Assembly: GCA_947628535.1 (NCBI GenBank)
Contig: CANRAF010000001.1
Coordinates: 93,120 to 157,119 of the forward strand
Source of the DNA: an uncultured Bacilli bacterium
GTDB lineage: Bacteria > Bacillota_I > Bacilli_A > RF39 > UBA660
DNA length: 64,000 nucleotides
Reading direction: 5' to 3'
This document shows positions 2,967 to 40,954 of the stretch, piece after piece (position 1 is the stretch's first letter; each line of letters starts with the position of its first letter). Under the pieces are notes generated by a model. The model did not search any database, was not told the origin of the DNA, and was given only the letters and a program-made list of their open reading frames with translations. The position numbers and the translations under genes are program-made.

Positions 2967-3851
2967 CTACTTATTATAGTTTATTACTTCGAGTATTCTA
3001 TTTAAATCACTATCATTTACATAATTTATTTCTAATTTTTTTGGTTTTATTTTTACTTTTGTTCCAAGATAATCTGATAAATCTCTTTCTAAATGTTCAT
3101 ATTCGTTATTATATTTTCTTTGTACTTTTACTTTTTTTGGTGTATTTTCTTTACTTGTTTCTTCTTCGATTTGTCTTACATTTAGATTTTCTTTAACTAT
3201 TCTGTTTGCAAGAGTTATTATTTGATCTTTATTTTCAAGTTTTGATAGAACTCTAGCATGACTCATACTTAATGATCCTTGTTTTACTAGATTTTTTACT
3301 TCTTCAGGAAGAATAAGAAGTCCAAGCATATTTGTTATATAACTTCTACTTTTTCCTACTCTTTTAGCTAGTTCTTCTTGAGTTAAATTTAAATTTTGCA
3401 TAAGAGTTTGGTAAGCTGTTGCTTCTTCTATAGCATTTAAATTTTCTCTTTGAAGATTTTCAAGAACTGCTATTTCCATCATTTGTCTGTCAGTAAAATC
3501 TCTAATTATACAAGGAATTGTTTCCATTCCTGCGAGTTTTGAAGCTCTATATCTTCTTTCTCCTGCAACTATTTCATAGTCTTTTATACTTTTTTTAACA
3601 ATTATTGGTTGGATTACTCCATGTTCTTTTATAGAAGTTGCTAATTCTTTTATGGACTCTTCATTAAATGTTTTTCTTGGTTGATATGGATTTACTCTAA
3701 GTTTGTTTAATGGAAGATCTGTTACTTCTTCTTTTGTTGATGTTTCCATTATTTTTTCTTCTATTTTGTCATAGTTAATATCTTCAATGTTAAATAATTC
3801 TTCAAGCCCACGACCTAAAGCTCTTCTTTTATTTTGTTCCATTTCCTTCAA
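2967..3851 (-). CDS. parB: Chromosome partitioning protein ParB/Spo0J
   Basis: ParB box (VIQPIIVKK...YEIVAGERRYRASKLAG), HTH (LTQEELAKRVGKSRSYITNMLGLL) and a C-terminal dimerisation domain. Sits next to parA. Confidence 0.9.
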   Translation of the reverse strand: MKEMEQNKRRALGRGLEELFNIEDINYDKIEEKIMETSTKEEVTDLPLNKLRVNPYQPRKTFNEESIKELATSIKEHGVIQPIIVKKSIKDYEIVAGERRYRASKLAGMETIPCIIRDFTDRQMMEIAVLENLQRENLNAIEEATAYQTLMQNLNLTQEELAKRVGKSRSYITNMLGLLILPEEVKNLVKQGSLSMSHARVLSKLENKDQIITLANRIVKENLNVRQIEEETSKENTPKKVKVQRKYNNEYEHLERDLSDYLGTKVKIKPKKLEINYVNDSDLNRILEVINYNK

Positions 3852-4614
3852 TCACCTCTTTGGCTAAATTTAAATATGCTTCTGATCCGCGTGATGTTGG
3901 ATCATAAGCTACTATTGGTTTTCCATGTGATGGTGCTTCTGTTAATCTGATTAATCTTGGTATTATTGTGTTATATACTTTGTCTTTAAAGTAGCTTCTT
4001 ATTTCTTCAACTACTTCAAGACCTAAATTAGTTCTAGCATCAAGCATTGTTAGTAATACTCCTTCTATTGATAAATTGGGATTTAAGTTTGCTTGAGTAT
4101 ACATTATAGCTTTTAGAAGTTGAGTTATTCCTTCCAGTGCGAAGAATTCACATTGCACTGGAATAATTACTGAATCTGATGCTGTTAAGGCATTTGTTGT
4201 TATAATTCCCATTGATGGTGGACAATCCATTATTATATAATCAAATTTATCTTTTATTTTATCTATATGCATTTTTAGTATCTTTTTATTAGATACTGGT
4301 GAATTATGATTATTTTGTTCTAATTCAATATCTATTCCTGCGAGATTAATATTAGCTGGGAGAACGTATAAATTTTTATAGTTTGTTTTAACTATAGCTT
4401 CATTTATCTCTGCTGTTTCATTAAATACATTATAAATACTTTTTTCAATATCTCCTTTATTTAAACCAATTCCTGTTGTCGCATTACATTGTGGATCTAA
4501 ATCTATTAATAATACTTGTTTATCTAAAATTGCTAGAGAGGCTGCTAAATTAATACTTGTTGTTGTTTTCCCTACTCCACCTTTTTGATTTATTAGTGAA
4601 ATTACTTTTCCCAT
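3829..4614 (-). CDS. parA: Chromosome partitioning ATPase ParA/Soj
   Basis: Deviant Walker A (KGGVGKTTTSINLAASLA). Overlaps the parB start, as is typical. Confidence 0.9.
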   Translation of the reverse strand: MGKVISLINQKGGVGKTTTSINLAASLAILDKQVLLIDLDPQCNATTGIGLNKGDIEKSIYNVFNETAEINEAIVKTNYKNLYVLPANINLAGIDIELEQNNHNSPVSNKKILKMHIDKIKDKFDYIIMDCPPSMGIITTNALTASDSVIIPVQCEFFALEGITQLLKAIMYTQANLNPNLSIEGVLLTMLDARTNLGLEVVEEIRSYFKDKVYNTIIPRLIRLTEAPSHGKPIVAYDPTSRGSEAYLNLAKEVIEGNGTK

Positions 4615-4698: not shown

Positions 4699-4722
4699 AA
4701 AGCTCTTTTTGAGCTTTTAATT
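4699..4722 (-). terminator. Rho-independent terminator downstream of noc
   Basis: On the minus strand, the GCTCAAAAAGAGC hairpin is followed by a T-run (plus-strand sequence aaaaaagctctttttgagctttt). Confidence 0.5.
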
Positions 4723-6177
4723 TTTTTTATCTATTTCTATTACAATTTGGTACTTGTTTTCACTGTCATATTCATTAGATGTTACTTTAAATCCAAACTT
4801 TTCAGTATTTTGAATTGCTTGTCTAAAATTATTAATAGCAAATCTTAAGTCATAAACATCGTTAAATTGTTCTTGTTTTTCTTCTGGTTCTTCTTTTTCA
4901 TCAGATGGAACTCTAAATTGATCAAATATATTTGTTGGTTTAGAAACTTGTTTTGGTTCTTCTGTTTTTTCTATACTTGGAATTTGAATTATTTCATTTG
5001 CTGATTCTTCAATATTTTGAGAATCATTTATTTCAGGTTTATTTTGTTCTTCTTGATTATTTGCTTCAGATTCTGGTGCATTTTCTTCAGGAATATTAGT
5101 TTCATTTGGTAATGATTGACTCTCTTCATTTATATTAGTGCTTTCATTTACATTACTCTCTGGAATTGTAACATTATTTTGAACATTTTCTTGTGTTTGT
5201 TCTAGCTTATTCAAATTATTATTCATTGGAGATATATTGTTTAAAGGTTCATTACTGTTATTTACTTCTACATTTTTGTTTTCTACTGGTTTTTCTTCAG
5301 CTCTATTTGCATCAAGTGATTGTGAATTTTGTGGTGTTACTACTGGTTGTACAGAGTTTTCAATACTTTGATTACTTTTTTGTTCATCTATATTAGGTAA
5401 TAAATTATTTTCTGGTTTAGAAGGAATATTTGCCACTTGCTCTTGTTTATTTATGTTTTCTTCTGCTGATCCTTGACTTATAGTAGGTGCTATAACAGGA
5501 TTATTATTTTCATTCATATTTAAGTTTGAATTTTTATTTTCGGTTTCTTCAGGAGTTTCTATTACTTCAGGCATTTTTCCTGTTAGTTTCATTATTTCTT
5601 CATCTAACTGTCTTACTGTTAATTTTTCATTTATAATTCTTTTTAATAAATCTGTTTGCATTTGTGTATCTAAACTTAATAGACTCCTGGCATGCCTTTC
5701 TGAAATTTCAGAATTTAAAAGAGCTGTTTGGACTTCTTCTGCTAAAGTTAAAAGTCTTAATTTGTTAGCTATAGTTGATTGAGATTTACCTAAATTTTGA
5801 GCTAATTCTTCTTGAGTAATATTATCTAGTTTTAATATTGTTTGATATGTTTTTGCTTCTTCTATTGGTGTTAAATTACTTCTTTGAAGATTTTCTAGTA
5901 AAGCAATTTTTGCAGTTTCTCTATCATCTATATCTCTTACTAAGGCAGGAATTGTTTCTTTTCCTGCGAGTTGTGATGCACGGAATCTTCTTTCTCCTGC
6001 AATTATTTCGTATTTGTCCCCTACTTTTCTTACAATTATTGGTTGAATTACTCCATGTTCTCTTATTGACTGTGCTAATTCTTGTAAAGATGCATCATCG
6101 AACATTTCTCTTGGCTGAAATCTATTTGGAATAATATCTGTTAAAGATATTTCAAAAATCTCTTTTTCTAAATTCAT
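4717..6177 (-). CDS. noc: Nucleoid occlusion protein Noc (ParB family) with a long low-complexity insertion
   Basis: N-terminal 200 aa align with Noc (IPNRFQPR, GERRFRAS, GKSQSTIANKLRLL, ISERHAR). An N/Q/E/P-rich stretch of about 230 aa follows, then a conserved C-terminal domain (FRQAIQNTEKFGFKV...IVIEI). Confidence 0.8.
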   Translation of the reverse strand: MNLEKEIFEISLTDIIPNRFQPREMFDDASLQELAQSIREHGVIQPIIVRKVGDKYEIIAGERRFRASQLAGKETIPALVRDIDDRETAKIALLENLQRSNLTPIEEAKTYQTILKLDNITQEELAQNLGKSQSTIANKLRLLTLAEEVQTALLNSEISERHARSLLSLDTQMQTDLLKRIINEKLTVRQLDEEIMKLTGKMPEVIETPEETENKNSNLNMNENNNPVIAPTISQGSAEENINKQEQVANIPSKPENNLLPNIDEQKSNQSIENSVQPVVTPQNSQSLDANRAEEKPVENKNVEVNNSNEPLNNISPMNNNLNKLEQTQENVQNNVTIPESNVNESTNINEESQSLPNETNIPEENAPESEANNQEEQNKPEINDSQNIEESANEIIQIPSIEKTEEPKQVSKPTNIFDQFRVPSDEKEEPEEKQEQFNDVYDLRFAINNFRQAIQNTEKFGFKVTSNEYDSENKYQIVIEIDKKN

Positions 6178-12954: not shown

Positions 12955-12998
12955 TTTTACCTCCATAATCAAAAATCCACTTTTGATAGTGGATTATT

Positions 12999-13124
12999 TT
13001 ATTTAGATAATCTTTTTCTTCCTTTTTTCCTTCTTTTATTTACTATTCCTGATTCCATACGAGAGAAGAAACCATGTTTTTTCTTCATTCTTCTATTATT
13101 TGGTTGATATGTACCTTTTTTCAC
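12999..13124 (-). CDS. rpmH: 50S ribosomal protein L34 (not in the ORF track; GTG start)
   Basis: Reverse-complement translation gives MKKGTYQPNNRRMKKKHGFFSRMESGIVNKRRKKGRKRLSK, which fits the L34 consensus. The RBS GGAGG lies 8 nt upstream. Confidence 0.85.
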   Translation of the reverse strand: MKKGTYQPNNRRMKKKHGFFSRMESGIVNKRRKKGRKRLSK

Positions 13125-13436
13125 TTCTTGCACCTCCAAACTTAATTAGTCGCTACTATTGTATATGAAAAGTAGGGTGGTTGTCAATATTTTTTTAGTT
13201 ATTAACAGAATAAACGTTAATTAACTTTTTTTATTTTAACAATTGTTAATAGTGTTATTAACTTTTTTCTTGAAATTTGTTAAAAACTATTTTATAGTAT
13301 GTATTTAAAGGAAAAAATATGTTGATAAGTTTGTTAATAAGTATGTTAATTAATATTTTAACTTTTCAAAAATTTAAAAATGTATTACAATTAAATTAAC
13401 TTGTTAATACTTTGTTTTTAGTGGGGAGATGGTATT
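13125..13436. promoter_or_regulatory. oriC, upstream DnaA-box cluster plus dnaA promoter region
   Basis: Repeated 9-mers TTATTAACA, or its reverse complement TGTTAATAA, at about 13199, 13245, 13255, 13332, 13345 and 13402. This is one mismatch from the canonical TTATNCACA box. The position between rpmH and dnaA is the standard oriC location. Confidence 0.6.
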
Positions 13437-14813
13437 ATGGATAATAATTTGTTATGGCAAAAAGTTTTAGATAATATTAGTAATATCGTTGACCCTTTGT
13501 CTTTTGATACTTGGTTCAAAAATATTGATTTTATAGATATCCAAAATCATTCAGTTAGATTAGTTATTCCAATAATGTGGTATAAAAGTCATATTGATAA
13601 TAATTATAAAGATATTATTTTAGAAAATTTTAATAATTTAATTAAAGATAATAATGTTGATAGTATTATATATATATTAAAAGATAATGTTGAAGATTTT
13701 TTAGAAAGTGAAAAGAGTAGTAATACTTCTTTGGAAGAAAAAAAAGAGAGTAATTATGTTAAAAATCATGTTTCTAATTTAAATAAAAATTATACTTTTG
13801 AAAGTTTTGTAGTAGGGGAGTCTAATAAATTTGCACAAGCTGCAGCTTTGGCAGTTGCTGAAAATCCTGGAACTATGTATAATCCTTTATTTATATATGG
13901 TAATAGTGGACTTGGTAAGACTCATTTGATGCATGCAATTGGAAATTATATTGAAAGTAAACTGCAAAAAAGAGTTTTATACGTTACTAGTGATGATTTT
14001 ATGAATGATTTTACAGGACTTGTTAGAAAAAATAGTAATGTTAATAACTTGGATTATGTTGATTTTTTCAAAAATAAGTATCGAAATATTGATGTTTTAC
14101 TTATAGATGATATCCAGTTTTTAGGAGGCGCAGAAAAATCACAACAAGAATTTTTCCATACTTTTAACAATTTATATAATGATAGTAAGCAAATTATTGT
14201 GTCATCTGATAGATCTCCTGAAGATTTAAAAGTTTTAGAAGATAGACTTAGAACACGTTTTGCCTGGGGTCTTCAGGTAGATATTAGTCCTCCTGATTAT
14301 AATTTAAAAGTTGCAATTATTAAGAATAAGTTAAAAAGAGAAGATATTGTTATAAATGAAGATGTTATATCTTTTATAGCTTCAAATATTGGTAATGATG
14401 TAAGACAACTTGAAGGTTCTATTACAAGACTTGTTGCTTATTCTGCAATCATGTGTGTTACTGATATTACACTTGATTTTGCAATGGAGGCATTAAAAGA
14501 TTTTACAAAGAAAGATAGTGTAACTGACCAAAATAATATAAGAAGAATTCAAAAAAGCGTTGCTAATTTCTATAAAATATCTTTTGAGGATATGAAATCA
14601 AAGAAAAGAACTCCAAATCTTGCTATTCCAAGGCAGGTTGCTATGTATTTATGCAGAAAACTTACTGATGAGTCATTTGAAAGAATAGGTATTGAGTTTT
14701 CTGGTAAAAATCATGCTACAGTAATACATGCTTGTAATAAAATTGAAAAAGAAATGAAAATAAATAAAGATCTAAATAATGCTATTGCTGATATTGAAAA
14801 GCAATTAACATAA
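13437..14813 (+). CDS. dnaA: Chromosomal replication initiator DnaA
   Basis: AAA+ Walker A (GNSGLGKTHLMHAIG) and a C-terminal DNA-binding domain. Confidence 0.95.
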   Translation: MDNNLLWQKVLDNISNIVDPLSFDTWFKNIDFIDIQNHSVRLVIPIMWYKSHIDNNYKDIILENFNNLIKDNNVDSIIYILKDNVEDFLESEKSSNTSLEEKKESNYVKNHVSNLNKNYTFESFVVGESNKFAQAAALAVAENPGTMYNPLFIYGNSGLGKTHLMHAIGNYIESKLQKRVLYVTSDDFMNDFTGLVRKNSNVNNLDYVDFFKNKYRNIDVLLIDDIQFLGGAEKSQQEFFHTFNNLYNDSKQIIVSSDRSPEDLKVLEDRLRTRFAWGLQVDISPPDYNLKVAIIKNKLKREDIVINEDVISFIASNIGNDVRQLEGSITRLVAYSAIMCVTDITLDFAMEALKDFTKKDSVTDQNNIRRIQKSVANFYKISFEDMKSKKRTPNLAIPRQVAMYLCRKLTDESFERIGIEFSGKNHATVIHACNKIEKEMKINKDLNNAIADIEKQLT

Positions 14814-16255: not shown

Positions 16256-16720
16256 GTGATGTTGATGAAATATGAAATAAATGATGAAACTTTGGCTATT
16301 TTGTCATTTAATGATGGAAAAAGTAGGGTAATCGAAAATAGTGAAGAATATATTGTTGATGATAATCCTTATGCAGTTATGGAACATAGTTGTAAATATT
16401 TTGGTAGTAGTATTGAGGGCAGAATATCTGGTTCAAGAGATATTTTAGGTAGCATTTATAAAACTCCAGTAATTGTTGAGGAATCTTTAGGTTTAATATT
16501 TTTTCCTACTGAGGCTTTAGAATCTTTAAATGTTTCATGGATTTCATATAAAAATATTAAAAATGTAGAAAAAGATGGTAAAAAAACAAAAATAATTTTT
16601 AAAAATGGTAGTAATATCGTTGTTGATTGTCCATTTTTCTCTATAAAGAATCAAATATTTAGATGTAATATGTTAGAAGCAATTTCTAATAATAGAAAAA
16701 TTAGTAAAAAAAGCGATTAA
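16256..16720 (+). CDS. ComK-family protein (competence transcription factor family)
   Basis: HSCKYFGSSIEGRISGS...KTPVIVEESLGLIFFPTEA...VSWISYKNIKNVEK...IIFKNGSNIVVDCPFFSIKNQIFRCNMLEA aligns motif-for-motif with B. subtilis ComK (SCRFFGSS..GRKAG...KPPIMVDPSNQIFLFPT...GWISHVHVKEF...VTFSNGKTMELPISYNSFENQVYRTAWL). The likely start is the ATG at 16265. Confidence 0.65.
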   Translation: MMLMKYEINDETLAILSFNDGKSRVIENSEEYIVDDNPYAVMEHSCKYFGSSIEGRISGSRDILGSIYKTPVIVEESLGLIFFPTEALESLNVSWISYKNIKNVEKDGKKTKIIFKNGSNIVVDCPFFSIKNQIFRCNMLEAISNNRKISKKSD

Positions 16721-19865: not shown

Positions 19866-22316
19866 ATGGATCATAGTAGAGATAGATTAGAAGAAAATAA
19901 TATTGTTAATGAAATAGAAACATCATTTCTTGAATATTCAATGAGTGTAATTGTATCTAGGGCTCTTCCTGATTTAAGAGATGGTTTAAAACCTGTTCAT
20001 CGTAGAATTTTATATTCTATGTATGAATCTGGTTATACTCCTGATAAACCTCATAAAAAGAGTGCGAGAATAGTTGGGGATGTTATGGGTAAATATCATC
20101 CTCATGGTGATAGTTCAATTTATGAGGCTATGGTAAGAATGGCTCAGGATTTCAATTATCGTTATATGTTAGTTGATGGACATGGTAATTTTGGAAATAT
20201 TGAAGGTTATGGAGCTGCTGCTATGCGTTATACAGAATCTAGACTTTCAAAAATTTCATTAGAACTTTTAAGAGATATAAATAAAAATACAGTTGATTTT
20301 GATGATAATTTTGATGAATCTGAAAAGGAACCTTCGATTTTACCTAGTAGATTTCCTAATATTTTAGTTAATGGTACTATGGGAATTGCTGTTGGTATGG
20401 CAACAAATATTCCTCCACATAATTTGGGAGAAGTTATTGATGGTTGTGTTGCTTATATTGATAATAACGATATAACAGTCGATGAACTTATGGATTATAT
20501 AAAAGGTCCTGATTTTCCTACAGGTGCTGTTATTTTAGGTAATAGTGGCATTAGAAAGGCTTATGAAACAGGAAAAGGAACAATTACAATAAGAAGTAGG
20601 GCTAAAATTGAGGAAAAGGATGGCAAACATTGTATAATTATTGATGAAGTTCCATATGGAGTTAATACTTTGGAACTAAAAAACAAAGTAGCAGAACTTG
20701 TTCATAATAAGGTTATTGATGGTATTTCTGATTATCACACTGATTTAAAAGATGGTGTTAAGATTACTATTACTTTAAAAAGGGATGCAAATCCTCAGGT
20801 GATTTTGAATAATTTATATAAGCATACTCAATTTCAAACTAATTATGGGATAAACTTTTTGATGCTTGATAATGGTGTTCCAAAGAGTTTAGGACTTAAA
20901 GATATTATTTCTAAATATATTGATTACCAAAAGGAAATAATTATAAGAAGGACAAAGTTTGATTTAGATAAAGCTGAAAAGAGAGTACACATTTTAGAAG
21001 GACTTAAGATAGCACTTGATAATATTGATGAAATTATAAAACTTTTAAGAGCTGCAAGAGATGATGAGATTGCAAGAACTCAATTGATGGATAGATTTGA
21101 TTTAACTGAAGCTCAGGCTAATGCTATTTTGGAAATGAGACTTAGAAGACTTACTGGTCTTGAAAGAGAAAAAATTGAAAATGAACTTGCAGAACTTCTT
21201 AAGAAGATAGTTGAATATAAAGCTATTCTTGAATCTGAAGAAAAAGTTTTAGGTATAATTAAGGAAGAACTTCTTGAAATTAAAGAAAAATATGGTGATG
21301 AAAGACGTACAAGTATTGATATGACTGCTATTGATTATATTGAAGACGAATCTTTGATTCCAAATGAAAATATTATGATATCACTTACTAAAAACGGATA
21401 TATCAAACGTTTGTGCGTTGATACATACAGAACTCAAAATCGTGGTGGCGTTGGTATTAGAGGTATGTCTACGAATGAAGAAGATTATGTTGAATTATTA
21501 GTAACTTGTCTTTCACATGATTACTTATTATTCTTTAGTAATTTTGGAAAGGTTTATAGAATTAAGGGGTATGAATTACCAGAATTTGGCAGACAATCTA
21601 AGGGTGTTCCTATTGTTAATATCTTATCACTTGAAAAGGATGAAAGAATTAATACAATTATTTCTGTTAGTAAGGAAGAAGAATGTAGTAATTTAATGTT
21701 CTTTACTAAGAATGGTTTGGTTAAGAGAACAGATATTACTGAGTTTGATTCAATTAGAAAAAATGGAAAAATTGCAATTACACTTAAAACTGATGATGAG
21801 TTAATTAGTGTTAAAAAAACTAATGGTAATGATGAGGTAATTATGGCTTCAAATGCTGGACGTATGGTTAGATTTAATGAGAATGATGTCCGTGTTATGG
21901 GAAGAAGCGCTTCAGGTGTTAGAGGTATAGATTTAGGAGATGCTAAAGTAATTGGTGCGGAAATTGTTAATATCTCTCAATTAATCTTAGTCGTAACTGA
22001 AAAGGGTTATGGAAAGAAAACTTCTGTTGATGAATATCGTTTAACTCATCGTGGTAGTAAGGGGGTTAAAGCTCTTAATATTACTGATAAAAATGGTTTG
22101 ATTGTTGCGTTTAAAGCGGTTAATGGTGATGAGGATTTAATTATTTCTACTGATAGTGGAATTGTTATTAGGTTAGATGTTAATAAAATATCAACTTTAA
22201 GACGTAATACTCAAGGTGTTAGATTAATTAATTTAAAGGATAATCAAATTGTTACTTCTGTTACTGTTACTGAAAAAAATGAGGAAACAGAACAAGAAGA
22301 GGTAAATGAAAACTAA
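19866..22316 (+). CDS. gyrA: DNA gyrase subunit A
   Basis: Active-site region (AAMRYTE) and C-terminal beta-pinwheel repeats. Length 816 aa. Confidence 0.95.
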
Positions 22317-22343
22317 TGTTTCACGTGAAACATTAGTTTTTTT
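22313..22343 (+). terminator. gyrA intrinsic terminator formed by a 24-bp perfect palindrome
   Basis: CTAATGTTTCACGTGAAACATTAG starts inside the gyrA stop codon and is followed by TTTTTTT. Confidence 0.7.
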
Positions 22344-22396
22344 CTTTCATATATACAAATGTATAAAAGGTAAACTACATATATTATTAATATTCA

Positions 22397-22416
22397 TATG
22401 TTCCACGTGGAACATA
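22397..22416. repeat. Palindrome variant ATGTTCCACGTGGAACAT (CACGTG-core family)
   Basis: Perfect 18-20 bp palindrome, a two-position symmetric variant of the main repeat. Confidence 0.8.
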
Positions 22417-22439
22417 GTATGTTGTTTATTCTTTTTTTA

Positions 22440-22461
22440 TTATGTTTCACGTGAAACATAA
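22440..22461. repeat. Palindrome ATGTTTCACGTGAAACAT copy
   Basis: Perfect 18-bp palindrome, extended to TTATG...CATAA. Confidence 0.85.
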
Positions 22462-22563
22462 TAAAAATACTGATAATTAAATAGTTTTTTTATGCCACTA
22501 TTACTTAAAATAACATCATCTGTAGGAAAATTTTGATCTTTTATATAACAATTTGCTGTTTTT

Positions 22564-22607
22564 TTGTTAATAATTATTTAATTAAAATTATTTCCCGGGA
22601 AATAATT
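22564..22607. repeat. 44-bp direct repeat (copy 1) containing the 22-bp perfect palindrome AATTATTTCCCGGGAAATAATT
   Basis: ttgttaataattatttaattaaaattatttcccgggaaataatt recurs at 23325-23368 with one mismatch. It includes the DnaA-box-like TGTTAATAA and a CCCGGG core. Confidence 0.85.
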
Positions 22608-22644
22608 TATTAGTTATTAGGTTTAATTTATTTAAATAATAGAT

Positions 22645-22666
22645 CAATGTTTCACGTGAAACATTG
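22645..22666. repeat. Palindrome CAATGTTTCACGTGAAACATTG copy
   Basis: Perfect 22-bp palindrome, identical to the copy at 23249-23270. Confidence 0.85.
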
Positions 22667-22704
22667 TTTATTAAGTTGACTTTAAATAACATTTATACTA
22701 TTAT

Positions 22705-22790
22705 TGATATGTGCAACACATATGGTTGAACTAGGTCAGGATCGGAAGATAGCAGCCTTAAAATCCTCTATGTGTGTGCACTTTTTTTGG
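22705..22790 (+). ncRNA. ffs: Signal recognition particle RNA, short 4.5S type
   Basis: GGUCAGGAUCGGAAGAUAGCAGCC matches SRP domain IV (E. coli GGUCAGGUCCGGAAGGAAGCAGCC). It reproduces the same non-canonical pair pattern and GGAA tetraloop, with compensatory changes. A closing helix (GUGCAACACAUA / UAUGUGUGUGCAC) is followed by a U7 run. Confidence 0.75.
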
Positions 22791-22798
22791 AGGAAAGT

Positions 22799-23212
22799 AT
22801 GAATAAATATATGAATTTAGCTATAGAGGAAGCAAAAATTGCTGCTAAAGAGGGAAATGTTCCTGTGGGAGCGGTTATTGTTAATAACGATAAAATTATT
22901 TCAATAAAGCATAATACAAAAAATACTTCTAATATTGCTATAAACCATGCTGAAATACTTTGTATTATTGAGGCGTGTAATAAATTAAATTCATGGTATT
23001 TAAATGATTGCGATTTATATGTTACTTTAAAACCTTGTAATATGTGTATGGGTGCTATTGCGGAATCTAGGATAAAAAATGTTTATTATTTGTTAGATTC
23101 TACTTACTATGAAAATTATAATAATAAACAACATACAAATGTTTATAGAATTGAAGATAATAGTAATTATAAGGAATTAATAAGTAATTTTTTTATAAAT
23201 TTAAGAGACTGA
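22799..23212 (+). CDS. tadA: tRNA-specific adenosine deaminase (CDA fold)
   Basis: Zinc motifs HAE...PCNMCMGAI. RBS GGAGGAAAG precedes the ATG at 22799; the ORF track starts earlier at 22772. Confidence 0.85.
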   Translation: MNKYMNLAIEEAKIAAKEGNVPVGAVIVNNDKIISIKHNTKNTSNIAINHAEILCIIEACNKLNSWYLNDCDLYVTLKPCNMCMGAIAESRIKNVYYLLDSTYYENYNNKQHTNVYRIEDNSNYKELISNFFINLRD

Positions 23213-23229
23213 TGTTTCACGTGAAACAT
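23212..23229. repeat. Palindrome ATGTTTCACGTGAAACAT copy overlapping the tadA stop codon
   Basis: Starts at the last base of the TGA stop, the same geometry as at gyrA. Confidence 0.85.
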
Positions 23230-23248
23230 AATAGAGCAAGAAAAAATT

Positions 23249-23270
23249 CAATGTTTCACGTGAAACATTG
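23249..23270. repeat. Palindrome CAATGTTTCACGTGAAACATTG copy
   Basis: Perfect 22-bp palindrome. Confidence 0.85.
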
Positions 23271-23324
23271 AGAGGTATTTATAATTTTAGTTTCTTTTTT
23301 TATTGTTTAATATAATTTGTTATT

Positions 23325-23368
23325 TTGTTAATAAATATTTAATTAAAATTATTTCCCGGGAAATAATT
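23325..23368. repeat. 44-bp direct repeat (copy 2) with the AATTATTTCCCGGGAAATAATT palindrome
   Basis: See copy 1. Confidence 0.85.
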
Positions 23369-23402
23369 GTGTGATTTTTATTTTTTATTTATATTTATGA
23401 AA

Positions 23403-23428
23403 ATATATGTTTCACGTGAAACATATAT
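23403..23428. repeat. Palindrome ATATATGTTTCACGTGAAACATATAT copy
   Basis: Perfect 26-bp palindrome upstream of dnaX. Confidence 0.85.
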
Positions 23429-31921: not shown

Positions 31922-32449
31922 ATGAAAACTACTGGGGTTGTTCGAAGAATTGATGATTTAGGCAGAATAGTAATTCCTAAGGAAATTAGGAAAACTCTTA
32001 GAATAAAGGATGGGGAATCAGTTGAAATATTTTTAAATAGCGATAATATAGTTTTAAAAAAATACTCTCCTTTACAAGGATTACCTAGTTTTTATAAAGA
32101 TTATGTTGAGTCTATATATTCTGAAATTGGAAATAATATAATTATTGTTGATAGAGATAAAATTGTGGCAGTTTCTGGGGATTTAAAGAAAAAGTATTTA
32201 AATAAGAATATTTCTTCGGAATTAGATGAAATTATTCAAAATAGAACTATAGTTTCTTCAAAGACAAAAAATAAAGTATCTATTATAAATGAAAAGGCAG
32301 AAGATGCAAGTTATGTTATTGCTCCCATAATTACTAATGGTGATGCTGTTGGAGCAGTTATTATTTTATCTTTTGAAGAAGTAATTGATGAATTTATAAT
32401 AAAAACGGGAACAATAGCTGCTAAATTTTTAGGGAAATATATTGAATAG
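31922..32449 (+). CDS. spoVT: Stage V sporulation protein T (AbrB-type N-domain + GAF)
   Basis: MKTTGVVRRIDDLGRIVIPKEIRKTLRIKDGESVEIF is near-identical to the SpoVT N-terminus. The GAF-like C-terminus is also conserved. Confidence 0.85.
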   Translation: MKTTGVVRRIDDLGRIVIPKEIRKTLRIKDGESVEIFLNSDNIVLKKYSPLQGLPSFYKDYVESIYSEIGNNIIIVDRDKIVAVSGDLKKKYLNKNISSELDEIIQNRTIVSSKTKNKVSIINEKAEDASYVIAPIITNGDAVGAVIILSFEEVIDEFIIKTGTIAAKFLGKYIE

Positions 32450-35216: not shown

Positions 35217-35843
35217 GTGACTATTTTGGCTAAAAAAAATAAAATAAAACGGAATACTGGTAAAAAGGTTTTATCTTGTATTTTGTATGTATTTGGTCTA
35301 ATTTTTATAGGTGCTGGAATAGTAGGGGTTATAAGTCTTGAAAATGATACATTCAAAGGTAGTCAAACACTTAATGATAATTTAGATAAATCAGTTTCTA
35401 CTAAGGAACTTGTTAATTCATTTCAAAAATTAGATAAAAAAAGCTTACAACCAGTTATGTATAGTAGTTTTGAAGATGCTGTTTATAATTCACAGTATTA
35501 TCCTACTAGTTTTGTAGGTAAATTAGTTCATTATGGGCCTGATTGCCCTTTATGTGGTGGCCATTTAGGATGTAATGGACAAGATGCAAGAAATGGTAAT
35601 ATTTATTATGATGATAGTGAATATGGAACTCTTAGAATAGTGGCAATGAGTTCAACTATTCCATGTGGAAGTATTATTAGAATCAATGTTGATGCTTATG
35701 ATCCAGATGGTATGTATGCGATTGTGCTTGATAGAGGAGTAAGCGGAAATATGGTAGATCTTTTAAAAACAAGTGCAAGAGCAAGTTCACCAGTGCAAAC
35801 TGTAAATGGAGTTACATTTGATATTGTAAGATATGGATATTAA
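35217..35843 (+). CDS. 3D-domain protein (YabE/MltA-like), membrane-anchored
   Basis: N-terminal TM helix. C-terminal 3D domain (IVAMSSTIPCGSIIRINVDAYDPDGMYAIVLDRGVSGNMVDL) plus a CPLCGGHLGC motif. The start may be the TTG at 35226. Confidence 0.7.
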   Translation: MTILAKKNKIKRNTGKKVLSCILYVFGLIFIGAGIVGVISLENDTFKGSQTLNDNLDKSVSTKELVNSFQKLDKKSLQPVMYSSFEDAVYNSQYYPTSFVGKLVHYGPDCPLCGGHLGCNGQDARNGNIYYDDSEYGTLRIVAMSSTIPCGSIIRINVDAYDPDGMYAIVLDRGVSGNMVDLLKTSARASSPVQTVNGVTFDIVRYGY

Positions 35844-35844
35844 A

Positions 35845-35868
35845 GACAAATATTTTGTCTTTTTTTCT
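35845..35868 (+). terminator. Rho-independent terminator
   Basis: AGACAAA-TATT-TTGTCT hairpin followed by T7. Confidence 0.65.
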
Positions 35869-35900
35869 GGGAAAATAATAGTAAAAAATTAGATAAAATA

Positions 35901-35929
35901 TTGATTTTTGCGTTTGAATATTGTACTAT
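35901..35929 (+). promoter_or_regulatory. Sigma-A-like promoter of TasA-like module 1
   Basis: TTGATT, 17 nt, TACTAT. The same promoter is duplicated at 37557-37585. Confidence 0.5.
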
Positions 35930-35956
35930 TTATATATATAGTAAAGGAGGCTAACA

Positions 35957-36640
35957 ATGGAAATTAAAGAGGATAATCAAAGAAAATTAATACTATCAGT
36001 TTTAGGAGTTGCAATATTAGTAGTTGCAGTAATTGGAATATCATTTGCAATATATCAAGCTACATTTAGTCAAAATGATGCTAATAGTATTCAAACAGGA
36101 ACTATTACTGTTAGTTATACAGAACCTAGTAATGCTATTAGTATTTCTGATGCAATGCCAATGGCTGAAAAAACAGCTCTAAAACAAGATAATAATAAAT
36201 TTGAATTTACTGTTACTACTGGTGCAAGCGGAAGCCTTACAGTACCATATGATATTAGTATTACGAAAATTGAAGAAAGTGATAATAATTTGAATGATGA
36301 AAATGTTAGAGTTTATTTAACAAAAGAGGATGAAACCCCAGTTGACTTAAGTACAAAAGAAGAGTCAAATGCTTTATACAAATCGTCAAATTCAAAATCA
36401 AGGCTTATTTCTGAATTAAATGAATATAGTGGGCGTAAGGAAGAAAAAGCAAAACTTTTATATAGCGCACAAGATGTGTTTAATGGTGATAATTCTGAAA
36501 CAACAAAATCTACAAAGTATGTTCTTAGAATGTGGGTAGATAAGAATTATCCAATGGATAATGGTACTGTTTCAAAAACATATAAAGCTAAAGTAAATGT
36601 TGATTCAGTAGTAACTCCACTTGGAACAAAAACAGAATAA
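35957..36640 (+). CDS. TasA/camelysin-family secreted protein, subtype A, copy 1 (SipW-cognate signal)
   Basis: Signal: K-rich n-region, h-region, then GISFA|IYQ. The mature N-terminus (DANSIQTGTITVSYTEPSNAISISDAMP) aligns with TasA (DATFASGTLDLSAKENSASVNLSNLKP). The C-terminal motif is YVLRMWVDKNY...KTYKAKVNVD. Confidence 0.75.
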   Translation: MEIKEDNQRKLILSVLGVAILVVAVIGISFAIYQATFSQNDANSIQTGTITVSYTEPSNAISISDAMPMAEKTALKQDNNKFEFTVTTGASGSLTVPYDISITKIEESDNNLNDENVRVYLTKEDETPVDLSTKEESNALYKSSNSKSRLISELNEYSGRKEEKAKLLYSAQDVFNGDNSETTKSTKYVLRMWVDKNYPMDNGTVSKTYKAKVNVDSVVTPLGTKTE

Positions 36641-36670
36641 TAGATAATAATGTTATGGAAGGAGAAAACT

Positions 36671-37435
36671 ATGGAAAATAATATAAATGACGATAACAAT
36701 AAAAAAACATTAATATTATCAATTTTGGGAATACTTGTTTTGATAATTGCTGTAGTTGGTGTTTCATTTGCAATGTACAAATTTACAGGAACAGGGACTC
36801 AAGAAAATGTAATTACAACAGGTACTGTCAATATGAGTTTTGATAATGAAGAAGGTAATAATATTTCTCTTACTAACGAATATCCCATGACTGATGAATA
36901 TGCAATACAAAGTAAGGATACTCATAAATCAGAATTTACTATAACTGCTAATTTGTCTGTAGAATCATCAGTTGCTATAGCTTATAGTATAGGAATTGAT
37001 GATCAAAATATAGAAGAAGGGGAAACTTTAAAGAAAGAATATATCAAAATAGCTTTACTTGATGACGATAATAATATATTAGTTGGGACTCCAAATGGAC
37101 TAGATAGTCAAGAATTAACAGGAGGAACTTTAATATCTGAACTTGAATCTCAACAAGATAATTTAATAAATAAATATATGCTTGCTCATAAACTTATTAC
37201 AGGAAGTAATACTTCGGATAAATATACTCTTTATGCATGGGTTGCAGACACTTATAATTTACCTACTGGTAATGACAATAAAGATTCAACTCTTGATGAA
37301 AATGTTATTAAGACTGAAGAAGATGATAAAACAAAGCAAGAAAAGACAACAAAATCTGAAACTTTTAAATTTAAATTAATAGTAAAAGCAAAGCAATTAC
37401 TTGATGAAGAAGAATATGAAGAATATCAACAATAA
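36671..37435 (+). CDS. TasA/camelysin-family secreted protein, subtype B, copy 1
   Basis: Signal ...GVSFA|MYKFTGTG. C-terminal motif YTLYAWVADTYN...ETFKFKLIVKAKQ resembles TasA FSFEATQ. The RBS-supported start is at 36671; the ORF track starts at 36650. Confidence 0.75.
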   Translation: MENNINDDNNKKTLILSILGILVLIIAVVGVSFAMYKFTGTGTQENVITTGTVNMSFDNEEGNNISLTNEYPMTDEYAIQSKDTHKSEFTITANLSVESSVAIAYSIGIDDQNIEEGETLKKEYIKIALLDDDNNILVGTPNGLDSQELTGGTLISELESQQDNLINKYMLAHKLITGSNTSDKYTLYAWVADTYNLPTGNDNKDSTLDENVIKTEEDDKTKQEKTTKSETFKFKLIVKAKQLLDEEEYEEYQQ

Positions 37436-37556
37436 GGAACATTTTTATATTTTAATAAAAAGTAGATAAAGTGAATATTATTTTTTACTTTATACTTCTT
37501 TTTTTATTAATAATTTTAGTATTATTGAAATTGTAAGGTTAAAAAAATATAAAATA

Positions 37557-37585
37557 TTGATTTTTATTCATTTATATTGTACTAT
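37557..37585 (+). promoter_or_regulatory. Sigma-A-like promoter of TasA-like module 2 (duplicate)
   Basis: TTGATT, 17 nt, TACTAT. The flanking sequence is near-identical to the module-1 promoter. Confidence 0.5.
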
Positions 37586-37607
37586 TGGTATAGTAAGGAG
37601 AATAGTG

Positions 37608-38267
37608 ATGGAAATAAAAGAAAATGGTCAAAAAAAATTATTGTTATCAATTTTGGGAGTGGCTATATTAGTTATTGCGGTAATTGGGATATCATTTGCA
37701 ATATATCAAACTACGTTTGATCAAGCAACTGCTAATAGCATTAAAACAGGGACTATTACTGTTAGTTATACAGAACCAAGTAATGCAATTGATATTGAAG
37801 ATGCAATGCCTATGAGTGAAAAAACAGCTTTAGAGACATTAAAGACAAGTAATAAAACATTTGATTTTACAGTTACTACTAAAGCAAGTGGGGAATTGAC
37901 TGTACCATATGAAATTAGCATTACAAAAGTGAGTGGTAGTTCAACTTTAGATGAGCAATATGTAAGAGTTTATTTAGAAAAAAATAATGGACCTGTTACT
38001 CTAATTGGTGAAAACGCAGTTCAAAAGGAAGGATTATATTCGAATCTCATTTCTAATTTAAAGGATTCAACGAAACGTCAAGATGGAACTAAACTTTTAT
38101 ATAGCACTAGTGATACTTTTGATAGTGAAAATAGTACAGCAATAAATACTACATATAAACTTATAATGTGGTTGGATGAAAACTATCAAATGGACAATGA
38201 GACTCAAACAAAAACATATAAAGCCAAGGTAAATGTTGATTCGGCTGTAACTCCAATCGCACAATAA
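37608..38267 (+). CDS. TasA/camelysin-family secreted protein, subtype A, copy 2
   Basis: Paralog of 35957-36640, with the same signal and GISFA|IYQ site. Start at 37608 after RBS GGAG. The ORF-track start at 37557 falls inside the promoter. Confidence 0.75.
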   Translation: MEIKENGQKKLLLSILGVAILVIAVIGISFAIYQTTFDQATANSIKTGTITVSYTEPSNAIDIEDAMPMSEKTALETLKTSNKTFDFTVTTKASGELTVPYEISITKVSGSSTLDEQYVRVYLEKNNGPVTLIGENAVQKEGLYSNLISNLKDSTKRQDGTKLLYSTSDTFDSENSTAINTTYKLIMWLDENYQMDNETQTKTYKAKVNVDSAVTPIAQ

Positions 38268-38305
38268 TAAAAAAATTTTTAAATATATGATGAAAGGAGA
38301 TAAGT

Positions 38306-39046
38306 ATGGAGAATAGTAATAATAAGAAAGTATTAATGTTGTCAATTTTAGGAATAATTGTGTTAATAATTGCAATTGTTGGTGTTTCATTTGCAATGTA
38401 TACTTTTTCGGGAACTGGAACTAAGACAAATGTAATTACAACTGGAACAGTGAATATGAGCTTTGAAAATGGTAAAAATGTTATTAATGTTGATAATCAA
38501 TATCCTATGGAAGATTCAGTGGCAATAACAAAAGAAGAAAATCAAACAAAATTTAGTGTTACTGCAAATTGGGGTTCTGCTCCATTAGCTATAAAATATG
38601 ATATTGGGATTTTGACCCCTTTTACTGAAGGAGATACTTTAAAGGAAAAACATATCAAGATAGCTTTGGTGGATGGTTCAGGGAACATATTGGTCGGGAC
38701 TCAAGAACCAGCTAAAGAAATAGAAGCAGAAAAGCATAATTTGACAGGTGGAACTTTGATGTCAGAACTTAAAAGCCAAAGTGGAGATTTAATAAAAGAA
38801 TATTGGCTTGCTAACGGACTTATTACAAATAGTGGACAAAAGGATGAATATACCCTTTATGCGTGGGTAGATAAGGATTATAATTTGCCTTATGGAGAAA
38901 GCAATGATGATTCTAGTGCTAATGTAGAAGCTCCTAGTACTACTGATGGAAATGATCAAAGTGTTAAACACGAAAAGACTACAAAAAGTGAAACTTTTAG
39001 TTTTAAAATTAAAGTGCAAGCTGAACAATTAATTGACGAAGACTAA
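38306..39046 (+). CDS. TasA/camelysin-family secreted protein, subtype B, copy 2
   Basis: Paralog of 36671-37435 with GVSFA|MYTFSGTG and a C-terminal ETFSFKIKVQAEQ. Confidence 0.75.
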   Translation: MENSNNKKVLMLSILGIIVLIIAIVGVSFAMYTFSGTGTKTNVITTGTVNMSFENGKNVINVDNQYPMEDSVAITKEENQTKFSVTANWGSAPLAIKYDIGILTPFTEGDTLKEKHIKIALVDGSGNILVGTQEPAKEIEAEKHNLTGGTLMSELKSQSGDLIKEYWLANGLITNSGQKDEYTLYAWVDKDYNLPYGESNDDSSANVEAPSTTDGNDQSVKHEKTTKSETFSFKIKVQAEQLIDED

Positions 39047-39199
39047 TAATAGTTTATATTTATAAAAAGTAGATAGAAAAAACATTATGAAAAATTTCGA
39101 TCTACTTTTTTTTAAATAATAATTAATGTCTAATTTTTCCTTTTAAAATATATTATTTTGTGGTAATATATTATTATAAGTTTATAGTAGGTGTTGCTT

Positions 39200-40297
39200 A
39201 TGAATGATGATAAAGAAGAATTAAATATTCAAGAAGAGAAAATAGCAGATGAAGTAGCGGATGAAATACTAACTGTTGAGAATGATGAATATGAACAAAG
39301 ATCTTTTTGGTTTATTGTTTTATTTCTTTTTTGTTTGATATTTTTAGTTTCATCTCTTTCATTTGCAGTGTTTGATACTTATTATAATGGTGAAAGTAAC
39401 AATGTGATTACTGTTGACGTTGATGAAAATGTAACTCAATGTGACAAGAACTGTGATACAGATAATGATGGTATATGTAATTATAACTGTGATATGAATA
39501 ATGATGGTATATGCGATAAAAATTGTGACAATGATAGTGATGGAAAGTGTGACGAAAATTGTGATGATTCTTATAAAAAACCTAGCAATAATTATTATAG
39601 TGTTTGTAAAACTAATTGTGATGTAAATAATAATGGTATATGTAATTATAATTGTGATACAAATAACGATGGTAACTGTGATAAAAACTGCGATACCAAC
39701 AATGATGGAGTATGTGATAAACATTGTGATAGCTCATTTCAAAAGCCAGAATATCCTAATAATCAAGATGGGAATGGTGATGAAGGAAATGATGTGGAAT
39801 CTGGTACTAAGCCACAACCAAGTGAATCAGAAAAACCTGCTTCAGGATCAATATTATTTTCGTTTAATGAAGAATCAAATTATATAAATATGACTGGTGT
39901 ATATCCTACTTCTGATACTATTGGTAAGAAGCTTGTTGGGGATAGACAATATTTTGATTTTAGTATTTCTGCTTCAATGAATAAAAATAAAGGAAATTTA
40001 GTATATGAAATTTCACTTGTACCAATTAGTGAAAATACAATTCCTGAAAATATGGTTAGGGTTTATTTGACTGAAAATGGAAAGGATGTTTCGATACTTG
40101 ATAAAACTATAAATAATTATAGTGAATTACCTAATAGTAAATATAGAAATGGTGGTAAGGTAATTTATAGCAAAAAAATAAGTAAAAATTATAATGGAGA
40201 ATATGTATTTAGAATGTGGCTTTCTTCAAAAGCGCCTGTTTATAATTCTTCAAAGAAATTTGGTGTAAAAATAGCTGTTAATGCATACTACAAATAG
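39200..40297 (+). CDS. Chimeric secreted protein: acidic N-tail, SipW-type signal, two blocks of Cys-containing TSP3-like Ca-binding repeats, and a TasA-like C-terminal half
   Basis: Signal ...SSLSFA|VFDTYY. About seven 12-aa repeats (NYNCDTNNDGNC / DKNCDTNNDGVC; D-x-[DN]-x-D-G loops with two Cys each) at nt 39437-39730. The C-terminus (MVRVYLTENGKDVS...YVFRMWLSSKAP...KKFGVKIAVNA) is paralogous to the TasA-like proteins. Confidence 0.7.
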   Translation: MNDDKEELNIQEEKIADEVADEILTVENDEYEQRSFWFIVLFLFCLIFLVSSLSFAVFDTYYNGESNNVITVDVDENVTQCDKNCDTDNDGICNYNCDMNNDGICDKNCDNDSDGKCDENCDDSYKKPSNNYYSVCKTNCDVNNNGICNYNCDTNNDGNCDKNCDTNNDGVCDKHCDSSFQKPEYPNNQDGNGDEGNDVESGTKPQPSESEKPASGSILFSFNEESNYINMTGVYPTSDTIGKKLVGDRQYFDFSISASMNKNKGNLVYEISLVPISENTIPENMVRVYLTENGKDVSILDKTINNYSELPNSKYRNGGKVIYSKKISKNYNGEYVFRMWLSSKAPVYNSSKKFGVKIAVNAYYK

Positions 40298-40300
40298 TTA

Positions 40301-40954
40301 TTGAAAGGATTGGTTGGTGTGAAAAACATAATTAATAGAATTTTTAAGATTATTTCATCTGCTATTTTTGTTTTGTTAGTGCTTCTAATTATATTAATTA
40401 TTTTTTATATTGTTCGAGTAAATTTTATGGCTAGTAATGACAAATTAGGCGATGTTAGAATCAACTTTTATACTATTTTAACTCAAAGTATGTATCCCAC
40501 TATTAAAGCGGGAGATATAGTTATTACTTATAAATCATTAGATGGAAAATATAATAATGGGGATGTTATCACTTTTGTTTCAGATAATAATGGAGGTATA
40601 ACTGTAACCCATAGAATTGTTGAAGTTTTTAATGTTAATAACAATTATTCTTATAAGACTAAGGGAGATAATAATAATGCTCCTGATAATGATGTTATTT
40701 CTGAAGATCATGTACTGGGGAAAGTTGTTATGAAAATTCCTAAGGTTGGGTATATACAACAATTTTTAGTTAGTAAAACTGGATGGATTGCTGCTGTTAT
40801 ATTACCATGTTTAGGAATAGTTATTTATGATATACTTAAATTGTTTAGACTTGCTGCGAGAAAAGGTAAGAATCTTATTGTTCAAGATAAAAGAACAGAA
40901 GATGCTAGAAAAAGATTAAAAGAGGTGTATGAAGATGAAAGTGAGGAAGAGTGA
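40301..40954 (+). CDS. sipW: Signal peptidase I, SipW type (S26B, archaeal/ER-type)
   Basis: Catalytic Ser box (TILTQSMYPTIKAGDIV) and His box (VTHRIVEV) with a single N-terminal TM helix. The likely start is the GTG at 40319, after RBS AAAGGA. Confidence 0.8.
   Translation: MKGLVGVKNIINRIFKIISSAIFVLLVLLIILIIFYIVRVNFMASNDKLGDVRINFYTILTQSMYPTIKAGDIVITYKSLDGKYNNGDVITFVSDNNGGITVTHRIVEVFNVNNNYSYKTKGDNNNAPDNDVISEDHVLGKVVMKIPKVGYIQQFLVSKTGWIAAVILPCLGIVIYDILKLFRLAARKGKNLIVQDKRTEDARKRLKEVYEDESEEE

Follow-up and report, generated by a model that had tools for sequence, protein, structure and literature searches.

What function is served by the perfect AT-rich palindromes with CACGTG or CCCGGG cores that crowd the DNA between gyrA and dnaX in an uncultured Bacilli bacterium, around the genes for the small signal recognition particle RNA (ffs) and tRNA adenosine deaminase (tadA)? 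This question was addressed here for a stretch of 64,000 nucleotides (assembly GCA_947628535.1, contig CANRAF010000001.1, positions 93,120 to 157,119), which is referred to as the window and to which all coordinates refer unless a related contig is named. In a preliminary description of this DNA, operator sites for a dimeric regulator of ffs, tadA and dnaX, a family of structured RNA hairpins and a small repeated palindromic element had been considered. Site searches, analysis of the encoded proteins and comparison with related metagenomic contigs lead to a different answer, namely that the palindromes very probably form a predicted origin-proximal cluster of seven parS sites with two interleaved Noc-binding sites (NBS), i.e. 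a bacterial centromere region.

Identity and arrangement of the sites

The site searches covered the whole window with up to two or three mismatches, and dinucleotide-preserving shuffles were used as control. The sequence ATGTTTCACGTGAAACAT was found exactly six times, starting at 22316, 22442, 22647, 23212, 23251 and 23407, and its symmetric variant ATGTTCCACGTGGAACAT starts at 22398; with up to two mismatches allowed, seven matches were obtained in the window and none in 100 shuffles. The second palindrome, AATTATTTCCCGGGAAATAATT, occurs twice (starts 22586 and 23347; none in shuffles), and at the tolerance of two to three mismatches no further parS or NBS match was detected in the 64 kb outside the array. 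All nine positions given in the preliminary description, including the two palindromes within a direct repeat, were thereby recovered. The hexamer cores are as conspicuous as had been noted, with 7/9 CACGTG and 2/3 CCCGGG copies of the window lying inside the array, as do 9 of the 12 perfect palindromes of at least 16 nt. The extension of the copies had been given as 22-26 bp; the CACGTG copies are in fact perfect palindromes over 32, 20, 34, 22, 18, 24 and 26 nt, and the two CCCGGG copies over 24 and 22 nt. Two copies indeed begin on the last base of a stop codon, one at gyrA (TAA, 22314-22316) and one at tadA (TGA, 23210-23212). Altogether, seven parS sites are placed inside 1.1 kb of the gyrA-ffs-tadA-dnaX spacers, about one per 160 bp. 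The features of the array are as follows (binding sites carry no strand).

22316 to 22333: parS-1, exact 18-mer; perfect palindrome 22309-22340 (32 nt), then T7; overlaps the gyrA stop
22398 to 22415: parS-2, ATGTTCCACGTGGAACAT; GTTCCAC half-sites, inside the known parS degeneracy tGTTNCACGTGAAACa
22442 to 22459: parS-3, exact; perfect palindrome 22434-22467 (34 nt)
22585 to 22608: NBS-1, AAATTATTTCCCGGGAAATAATTT; 24-nt perfect palindrome that fits the extended NBS consensus of the clade
22647 to 22664: parS-4, exact; just 5′ of the predicted ffs promoter (TTGACT at 22676)
22700 to 22797, plus strand: ffs (small SRP RNA), within the array and outside the binding-site system
22799 to 23212, plus strand: tadA (tRNA adenosine deaminase), probable ATG at 22799; within the array
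23212 to 23229: parS-5, exact; overlaps the last base of the tadA TGA, likewise in the relative L014
23251 to 23268: parS-6, exact; palindrome 23248-23271
23346 to 23368: NBS-2, AAATTATTTCCCGGGAAATAATT
23407 to 23424: parS-7, exact; palindrome 23403-23428; 5′ of dnaX

Both site types as such are already known and belong to textbook knowledge. The sequence TGTTTCACGTGAAACA is the consensus parS, at which ParB/Spo0J loads, and TATTTCCCGGGAAATA is the consensus NBS, at which the ParB paralogue Noc loads. The parS consensus tGTTNCACGTGAAACa, as printed in PMC7022226 and PMC8429893, is matched by the six exact copies of TGTTTCACGTGAAACA and by one TGTTCCACGTGGAACA, and the NBS palindrome tATTTCCCGGGAAATa, the consensus of which is printed in PMC7383237 and PMC8429893, is matched by two exact 16-mers that are extended to 22-24 nt. 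The probes used by Jalal et al. were GGATGTTTCACGTGAAACATCC for parS and GGATATTTCCCGGGAAATATCC for NBS (PMC8429893), and ATGTTTCACGTGAAACAT and TATTTCCCGGGAAATA correspond exactly to the cores of the parS and NBS probes of the Noc/ParB papers, according to which the two sites differ in two bases per half-site (TGTTTCAC vs TATTTCCC). In a scan with one genome per species, the parS 18-mer was present in at least 120 genome stretches from many phyla (among them Streptomyces, Alphaproteobacteria and Clostridia) with GC contents of 25-71%, and among the matches listed 71 stretches contained two to seven parS-like sites within 8 kb. This wide spread together with the local clustering fits the near-universal parS.

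Predicted readers of the sites and position relative to the origin

Upstream of the array, the minus strand carries, from high to low coordinates, rnpA, yidC, jag, mnmE, mnmG, rsmG, a noc-like gene, parA and parB, and the order rsmG, noc-like, parA, parB equals gidB-noc-soj-spo0J of B. subtilis. The plus strand carries dnaA, dnaN, a comK-like open reading frame (ORF), recF, gyrB, gyrA, the array with ffs and tadA, dnaX, ybaB and recR. The features concerned are:

2967 to 3851, minus strand: parB/spo0J; ALGRGLEELF N-terminal ParA-stimulating peptide, GERRYR cytidine triphosphate (CTP) motif, residues R/M/I/S (parS-type)
3829 to 4614, minus strand: parA/soj, ParA-family ATPase
4717 to 6177, minus strand: noc-like; NBS-type specificity residues (Q/K/T/R), without an N-terminal amphipathic helix; linker of low complexity, about 230 aa
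6244 to 6939, minus strand: rsmG, adjoining the noc-like gene
12973 to 13436, no strand: putative oriC in the rnpA-dnaA spacer, with nine TGTTAATAA-type boxes at up to one mismatch
13437 to 14813, plus strand: dnaA

The array starts 8.9 kb downstream of dnaA, and from the positions of dnaA and of the box-rich rnpA-dnaA spacer it is placed about 9 kb from the putative oriC.

DNA specificity in this protein family is set by four positions, R173/T179/A184/G201 in ParB and Q173/K179/K184/R201 in Noc, and a K at just one of the positions 179 and 184 permits NBS to be read (PMC7383237). In the ParB of the window (294 aa; best solved relative B. subtilis Spo0J, 6sdk) the region GKSRSYITNMLGLLI…SMSHAR yields R, M, I and S, with R at the 173-equivalent and no K. 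Its ParA-stimulating peptide is RRALGRGLEELF, and with its CTP motif, its parS-type residues and the presence of parA, cognate ParB and ParA genes for the parS sites were identified. In the Noc-like protein (486 aa), which is encoded next to the gidB-soj-spo0J order and has the Noc structures 7ng0, 7nfu and 7ol9 as best solved relatives, the region GKSQSTIANKLRLLT…SERHAR yields Q, K, T and R. Given the parS-type residues of the one protein and the NBS-type residues of the other, a matching predicted reader for each motif is thus encoded in the rsmG/noc-like/parA/parB run about 17 kb upstream of the array.

Several observations weigh against this assignment. The Noc-like protein has T, not K, at the 184-equivalent, it scores 296.3 bits and stays under the NCBIfam TIGR04285 Noc cutoff of 315, and the start site as well as the alignment to B. 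subtilis Noc indicate that the N-terminal amphipathic helix (aa 1-10), on which Noc of B. subtilis depends for its function, is missing. Furthermore, parS and NBS were assigned in this organism from sequence, and their distribution in its genome is that seen within 64 kb. The palindromes also fold well as RNA; this is true of any palindrome, however.

The missing helix deserves closer attention, since the N-terminal helix of Noc is needed for membrane binding and function and is conserved in all Noc proteins examined by Adams et al. (PMC4331003). The Noc-like protein begins with MNLEKEIF, 16 aa ahead of the motif PNRFQPR, an in-frame stop is located 11 codons upstream, and its residue 4 aligns with residue 27 of B. 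subtilis Noc. The 120 closest homologues likewise have 14-18 residues before the motif, lack the helix and show the specificity residues Q-K-(T/N/S)-R. Of the 149 best representatives at 50% identity, 142 also have the helix-less form. Their median length is 500 aa, owing to long linkers rich in Q/N/P/E that precede a conserved C-terminal domain of the Noc type; in the window the linker comprises about 230 aa, is N/E/Q/P-rich and of low complexity. A peptide NIFDxLRV in this linker was considered as a relocated membrane or partner peptide and was rejected, as it is restricted to close relatives and occurs in 7 of the 149 representatives. The missing helix, the score below the cutoff and the T at the 184-equivalent argue that the protein is not a canonical Noc. 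According to these sequence features it would resemble Noc in DNA recognition and fail the defining feature of the family, and a role in nucleoid occlusion cannot be assumed.

Occurrence of the array in related genomes

Metagenomic contigs were scanned for ATTTCCCGGGAAAT within 25-55 nt of GTTTCACGTGAAAC, and at least 120 contigs with mixed arrays of parS (P) and NBS (N) were obtained, e.g. PNPNPNPNP, all of them of low GC content (22-34%, median 26.4%). Since one NBS-parS pair was demanded for the selection of each contig, the existence of an array is given by construction, whereas a shared locus, extra sites and empty flanks are not. Among the 120 contigs listed, which represent 110 clusters at 95% and 64 clusters at 80% nucleotide identity, 114 have a homologue of gyrA, tadA or dnaX no more than 1 kb from the array. 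Compared with the window, their GyrA proteins are 57-80% and their DnaX proteins 33-65% identical. Together the arrays of the listed contigs span 81.5 kb with 471 parS and 355 NBS (2-18 sites per array), and the 686 kb outside the arrays contain no parS and 18 NBS (18/373, about one per 38 kb). Unlike neighbours (497 PN pairs) outnumber like ones (159 PP and 68 NN pairs). No fixed parS-NBS spacing or helical phasing was observed in the listed contigs, where centre distances are broad (25-75 bp) without a sharp peak; the centre distance of 58-59 bp that occurs twice in the window is not general across the clade.

Closer inspection of individual relatives agrees with this picture. Three contigs from the parS scan (L014, L101 and L105) contain orthologous loci with about 70% nucleotide identity in gyrA. 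In L014 the order is gyrA, parS, ffs, tadA (with the TGA overlapping parS as in the window), four NBS-like sites, parS, NBS, parS and dnaX. In L101 five parS follow gyrA, and L105 has seven parS and zero NBS. Four further relatives were found via DnaA (L245-L248, 82-87% identical), one of them from a Hadza human-gut sample and one labelled ‘Bacilli bacterium’; each has 9-11 sites within 21 kb, all of them between gyrA and dnaX. The position of the array is conserved in these seven relatives as in the 114 listed contigs.

Some peculiarities of these loci were also recorded. The four NBS-like sites of L014 (2987-3092) recur at a period of 29-31 bp, and three of them have CCAGG for CCGGG (TATTTCCCAGGAAATA), so that degenerate, asymmetric NBS variants are present in an array. 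L105 (CAYOWI010000005.1) is tagged ‘uncultured Muribaculaceae’, yet its GC content is 27.5% and its synteny, gyrA-ffs-parS-tadA-dnaX, is of the Bacilli type; the contig is probably mis-binned or mislabelled. An exact extended NBS, AAATTATTTCCCGGGAAATAATTT, is located inside the dnaX coding region of the nearer relatives, at L130 (1643), L154 (3448), L203 (1157), L222 (6517) and L228 (11518), and dnaX of the window is without any such site.

In logos of the clade, 18 bp are preferred for parS, the 14-mer being flanked by A in 94% and by T in 89%, with a weak C/A further out, and about 24 bp for NBS (AAAwTATTTCCCGGGAAATAwTTT). These preferences explain why the NBS palindromes reach 22-24 nt, and they explain the parS extensions in part. 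In both site types the core is invariant across the clade and the flanks are variable, which is what a protein site predicts.

Often the arrays grow by duplication of composite units. The route of expansion is shown by L192, in which an NBS+parS unit of 106 bp is repeated 5.5 times in strict tandem at 92% identity (2090-2674) and a unit of 104 bp 2.5 times (3304-3566). In the window, the two parS…NBS…parS segments that had been described as similar modules 5′ of ffs and 5′ of dnaX are 79% identical. The 44-bp direct repeat reported within them is present, with 43/44 positions identical, and turned out to be part of a 52-nt near-identical core (22557-22608 on the plus strand vs 23318-23369) that holds a TGTTAATAA box and the NBS. 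Close relatives likewise have duplicated modules on either side of tadA. With the exception of the TGTTAATAA box, the clade logos revealed nothing conserved in the 52-nt repeat farther than ±13 nt from the NBS centre. This points to paralogous copies that arose by local duplication or gene conversion.

The TGTTAATAA boxes of the array (22565-22573 and 23326-23334) had been termed DnaA-box-like. The box is the repeated one of the rnpA-dnaA spacer, with nine matches at up to one mismatch in its 464 bp, placed at 13199-13410; with 17 copies on the plus strand of the window, it is by itself not special to the array. The canonical TTATCCACA was not detected anywhere in the 64-kb window. After parS, NBS, genes and ffs had been masked, ATTGTTAATA was the most over-represented word in the arrays of the clade (34 observed vs 1.6 expected, 15 loci), and exact TGTTAATAA/TTATTAACA boxes reach 0.87 per kb in arrays vs 0.26 per kb overall. 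In L124 a TGTTAATAA box is fixed 14 nt 5′ of four parS copies, the spacers of which have diverged. The box may be a clade-specific DnaA box within the centromere array.

Other observations concern the surroundings of the array. An ORF of the ComK family (Pfam PF06338, 121 bits; 16256-16720, plus strand) lies between dnaN and recF and keeps this position in L124, L143, L163, L175, L185, L189, L218 and L245-L248. In two human-gut relatives (L245, 2719-6205; L246, 802-6142), several genes, among them those for a TraG/type IV secretion system coupling protein and an AraC-type regulator, are found between mnmG and mnmE near oriC, where the window has no such genes; they may belong to an integrated mobile element. 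A Pfam scan of 31.9-41 kb of the window identified SpoVT-like (31922-32449), MetRS and TatD genes, and for the seven consecutive ORFs just downstream of them (208-368 aa; 35217-40954, plus strand) no Pfam family was found at E ≤ 1e-5; none of these genes and ORFs is relevant to the array.

Role of the sites and comparison with known systems

Following the established ParABS and Noc models, from which the mechanism was derived, ParB dimers would nucleate at each of the seven parS sites, bind CTP and close into sliding clamps, which would spread over the neighbouring DNA and build a partition complex, which ParA would move and by which SMC would be loaded. For the Noc-like clamp, the two NBS in this 1.1-kb stretch would serve as loading sites. 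Some parS copies, the gyrA copy included, appear to have been lengthened into hairpin and T-tract terminators. The primary role expected for the sites is the loading of CTP-dependent clamps for chromosome segregation and organisation, rather than operator control of ffs, tadA and dnaX.

It could be argued instead that the palindromes act mainly as RNA hairpins, i.e. as terminators or processing sites of the gyrA, ffs and tadA transcripts, and that the match to parS and NBS is incidental. Seven terminator-like sites were indeed found vs 0.2 expected in shuffles, and the gyrA copy looks like a terminator as described before, with a 15-bp stem and T7 (22308-22341 + T7; U7 in the transcript), a folding energy of -16.3 kcal/mol and z = -5.7. 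In the clade, 22% of the exact parS copies have at least four further complementary flank pairs vs 2.4% with randomly paired flanks, and the extended copies show a T-rich tail (at least six T in eight positions, gyrA-to-dnaX direction) in 21-29% vs 7%; A runs upstream of the extended parS copies showed no matching rise. Against hairpins as the main function, the core of 16-18 nt never covaries and is identical in at least 64 diverged lineages and across phyla, and such invariance of sequence argues against RNA structure as the main constraint. Most other copies of the window do not qualify as intrinsic terminators, 215 of 342 parS copies have zero or one extra pair and no T tail, the parS after gyrA in L014 has no T run, and the hairpins predicted for the NBS are weak (z = -0.5 to -1.6). 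In addition, ParB and Noc-like genes with fitting specificity residues are present. As the main explanation, RNA hairpins are thus very improbable.

A secondary role of this kind is retained for part of the sites. Judged from their sequence, a subset of the parS copies appears to double as intrinsic terminators, and the gyrA copy is probably the gyrA terminator as well; the role is regarded as secondary because most copies are without it, the gyrA copy of L014 lacks the T run and the core never covaries. Extended, variable palindromic flanks of covariation-like appearance were seen, for example, in L124 (12223-12660), L101 (3480-3700) and the window (22309-22340 and 22434-22467), and template switching at quasi-palindromes is an alternative, neutral source of long flanks.

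Equally improbable is a main role as operators, through which a dimeric transcription factor would co-regulate ffs, tadA and dnaX. The premise of symmetric sites for dimeric DNA-binding proteins holds, copies are located just 5′ of the predicted ffs promoter and 5′ of dnaX, and parS-bound ParB can, according to published work on P. aeruginosa and S. pneumoniae, repress genes in its vicinity. However, copies are also placed at the 3′ ends of genes, where they overlap stop codons, and in relatives their number and spacing vary freely (2-18 sites per array, 25-75 bp) without a fixed promoter register. The motifs are moreover the consensus sites for ParB and for Noc, and the primary role known for these proteins is a different one from promoter control. 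A dispersed element of the repetitive extragenic palindromic (REP) or miniature inverted-repeat transposable element (MITE) type, or leftover CACGTG and CCCGGG restriction-site palindromes, can practically be dismissed: multiple perfect palindromes in intergenic DNA and tandem arrays such as that of L192 would suit it, but the window has no copies elsewhere, the relatives have zero parS in 686 kb outside arrays, 114 of the 120 contigs listed have the array at the same locus, and conservation extends over 16-24 bp, beyond the hexamer.

Within the centromere assignment, the interleaving of the two site types is possibly functional (mixed complexes, mutual roadblocks or a link to initiation) or a by-product of tandem duplication. 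As a tentative proposal, rather less likely to be right than wrong, the centromere of this clade is composite, with sites for ParB and for a ‘headless’ Noc 25-75 bp apart in tandem units at one conserved locus, and the headless Noc acts at the partition complex instead of in membrane-tethering nucleoid occlusion, for example by co-condensation, by bounding the spreading of ParB or by a link to DnaA. Besides the membrane helix, a ParA-stimulating peptide is also absent from the headless Noc, and its linker is long and disordered. One possibility is that the arrangement survives from an intermediate stage in the split of Noc from ParB, at which DNA specificity had been switched but the helix not yet gained; another is a secondary repurposing.

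The region can now be annotated as a parS cluster with NBS sites, a centromere about 9 kb from oriC. A limited literature search yielded neither interleaved parS/NBS arrays nor a helix-less Noc orthologue, and the interleaved array at gyrA–ffs–tadA–dnaX in low-GC uncultured gut and rumen Bacilli appears to be undescribed. The clade offers a natural case in which parS and NBS stand side by side in tandem units and a Noc orthologue has NBS-type residues and no helix, and it opens to test the order of ParB/Noc neofunctionalisation, the behaviour of two clamp species on one DNA track and the role of a non-membrane Noc.

The parS/Spo0J/Soj systems of B. subtilis and other bacteria share with the present locus the 16-bp consensus, a site near the origin, parA and parB near oriC, the GERRxR CTP motif and N-terminal ParA-stimulating peptide of ParB, and an R173-type recognition helix. 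In B. subtilis the parS sites are dispersed over hundreds of kb, whereas here seven sites occupy 1.1 kb, and this clade favours the 18-bp form A-T-GTTTCACGTGAAAC-A-T. Multiple consensus parS near oriC are likewise known from P. aeruginosa (parS1-4) and from Streptomyces coelicolor and Listeria innocua (20-23 sites); the arrays described here differ in being interleaved with the sites of a second protein of the ParB family and in often growing by tandem duplication of a composite parS+NBS unit. The reason for parS clustering and the origin of Noc from ParB have been named as open questions in reviews.

With intrinsic terminators the array has in common the GC-containing stem and subsequent T tract of the gyrA-proximal copy and the enrichment of sense T tails at extended copies; it differs in that the core of the stem is a fixed, predicted protein-binding sequence and that most copies are without a T tract. 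With Noc/NBS of B. subtilis and S. aureus it shares the identical NBS core ATTTCCCGGGAAAT, a paralogue encoded between gidB and soj, the residues Q173, K179 and R201, the GERRFR motif of the ParB N domain and the Noc-type C-terminal domain. Canonical NBS are scattered over the origin-proximal part of the chromosome and missing from the terminus, with about 70 sites in B. subtilis and 41 in S. aureus, whereas in this clade they are concentrated more than 100-fold inside the parS array; in the window both NBS lie inside the array, a comparison with scattered sites that extends over 64 kb. In contrast to the canonical Noc, the Noc-like protein is without the N-terminal amphipathic membrane helix and carries an additional long low-complexity linker.

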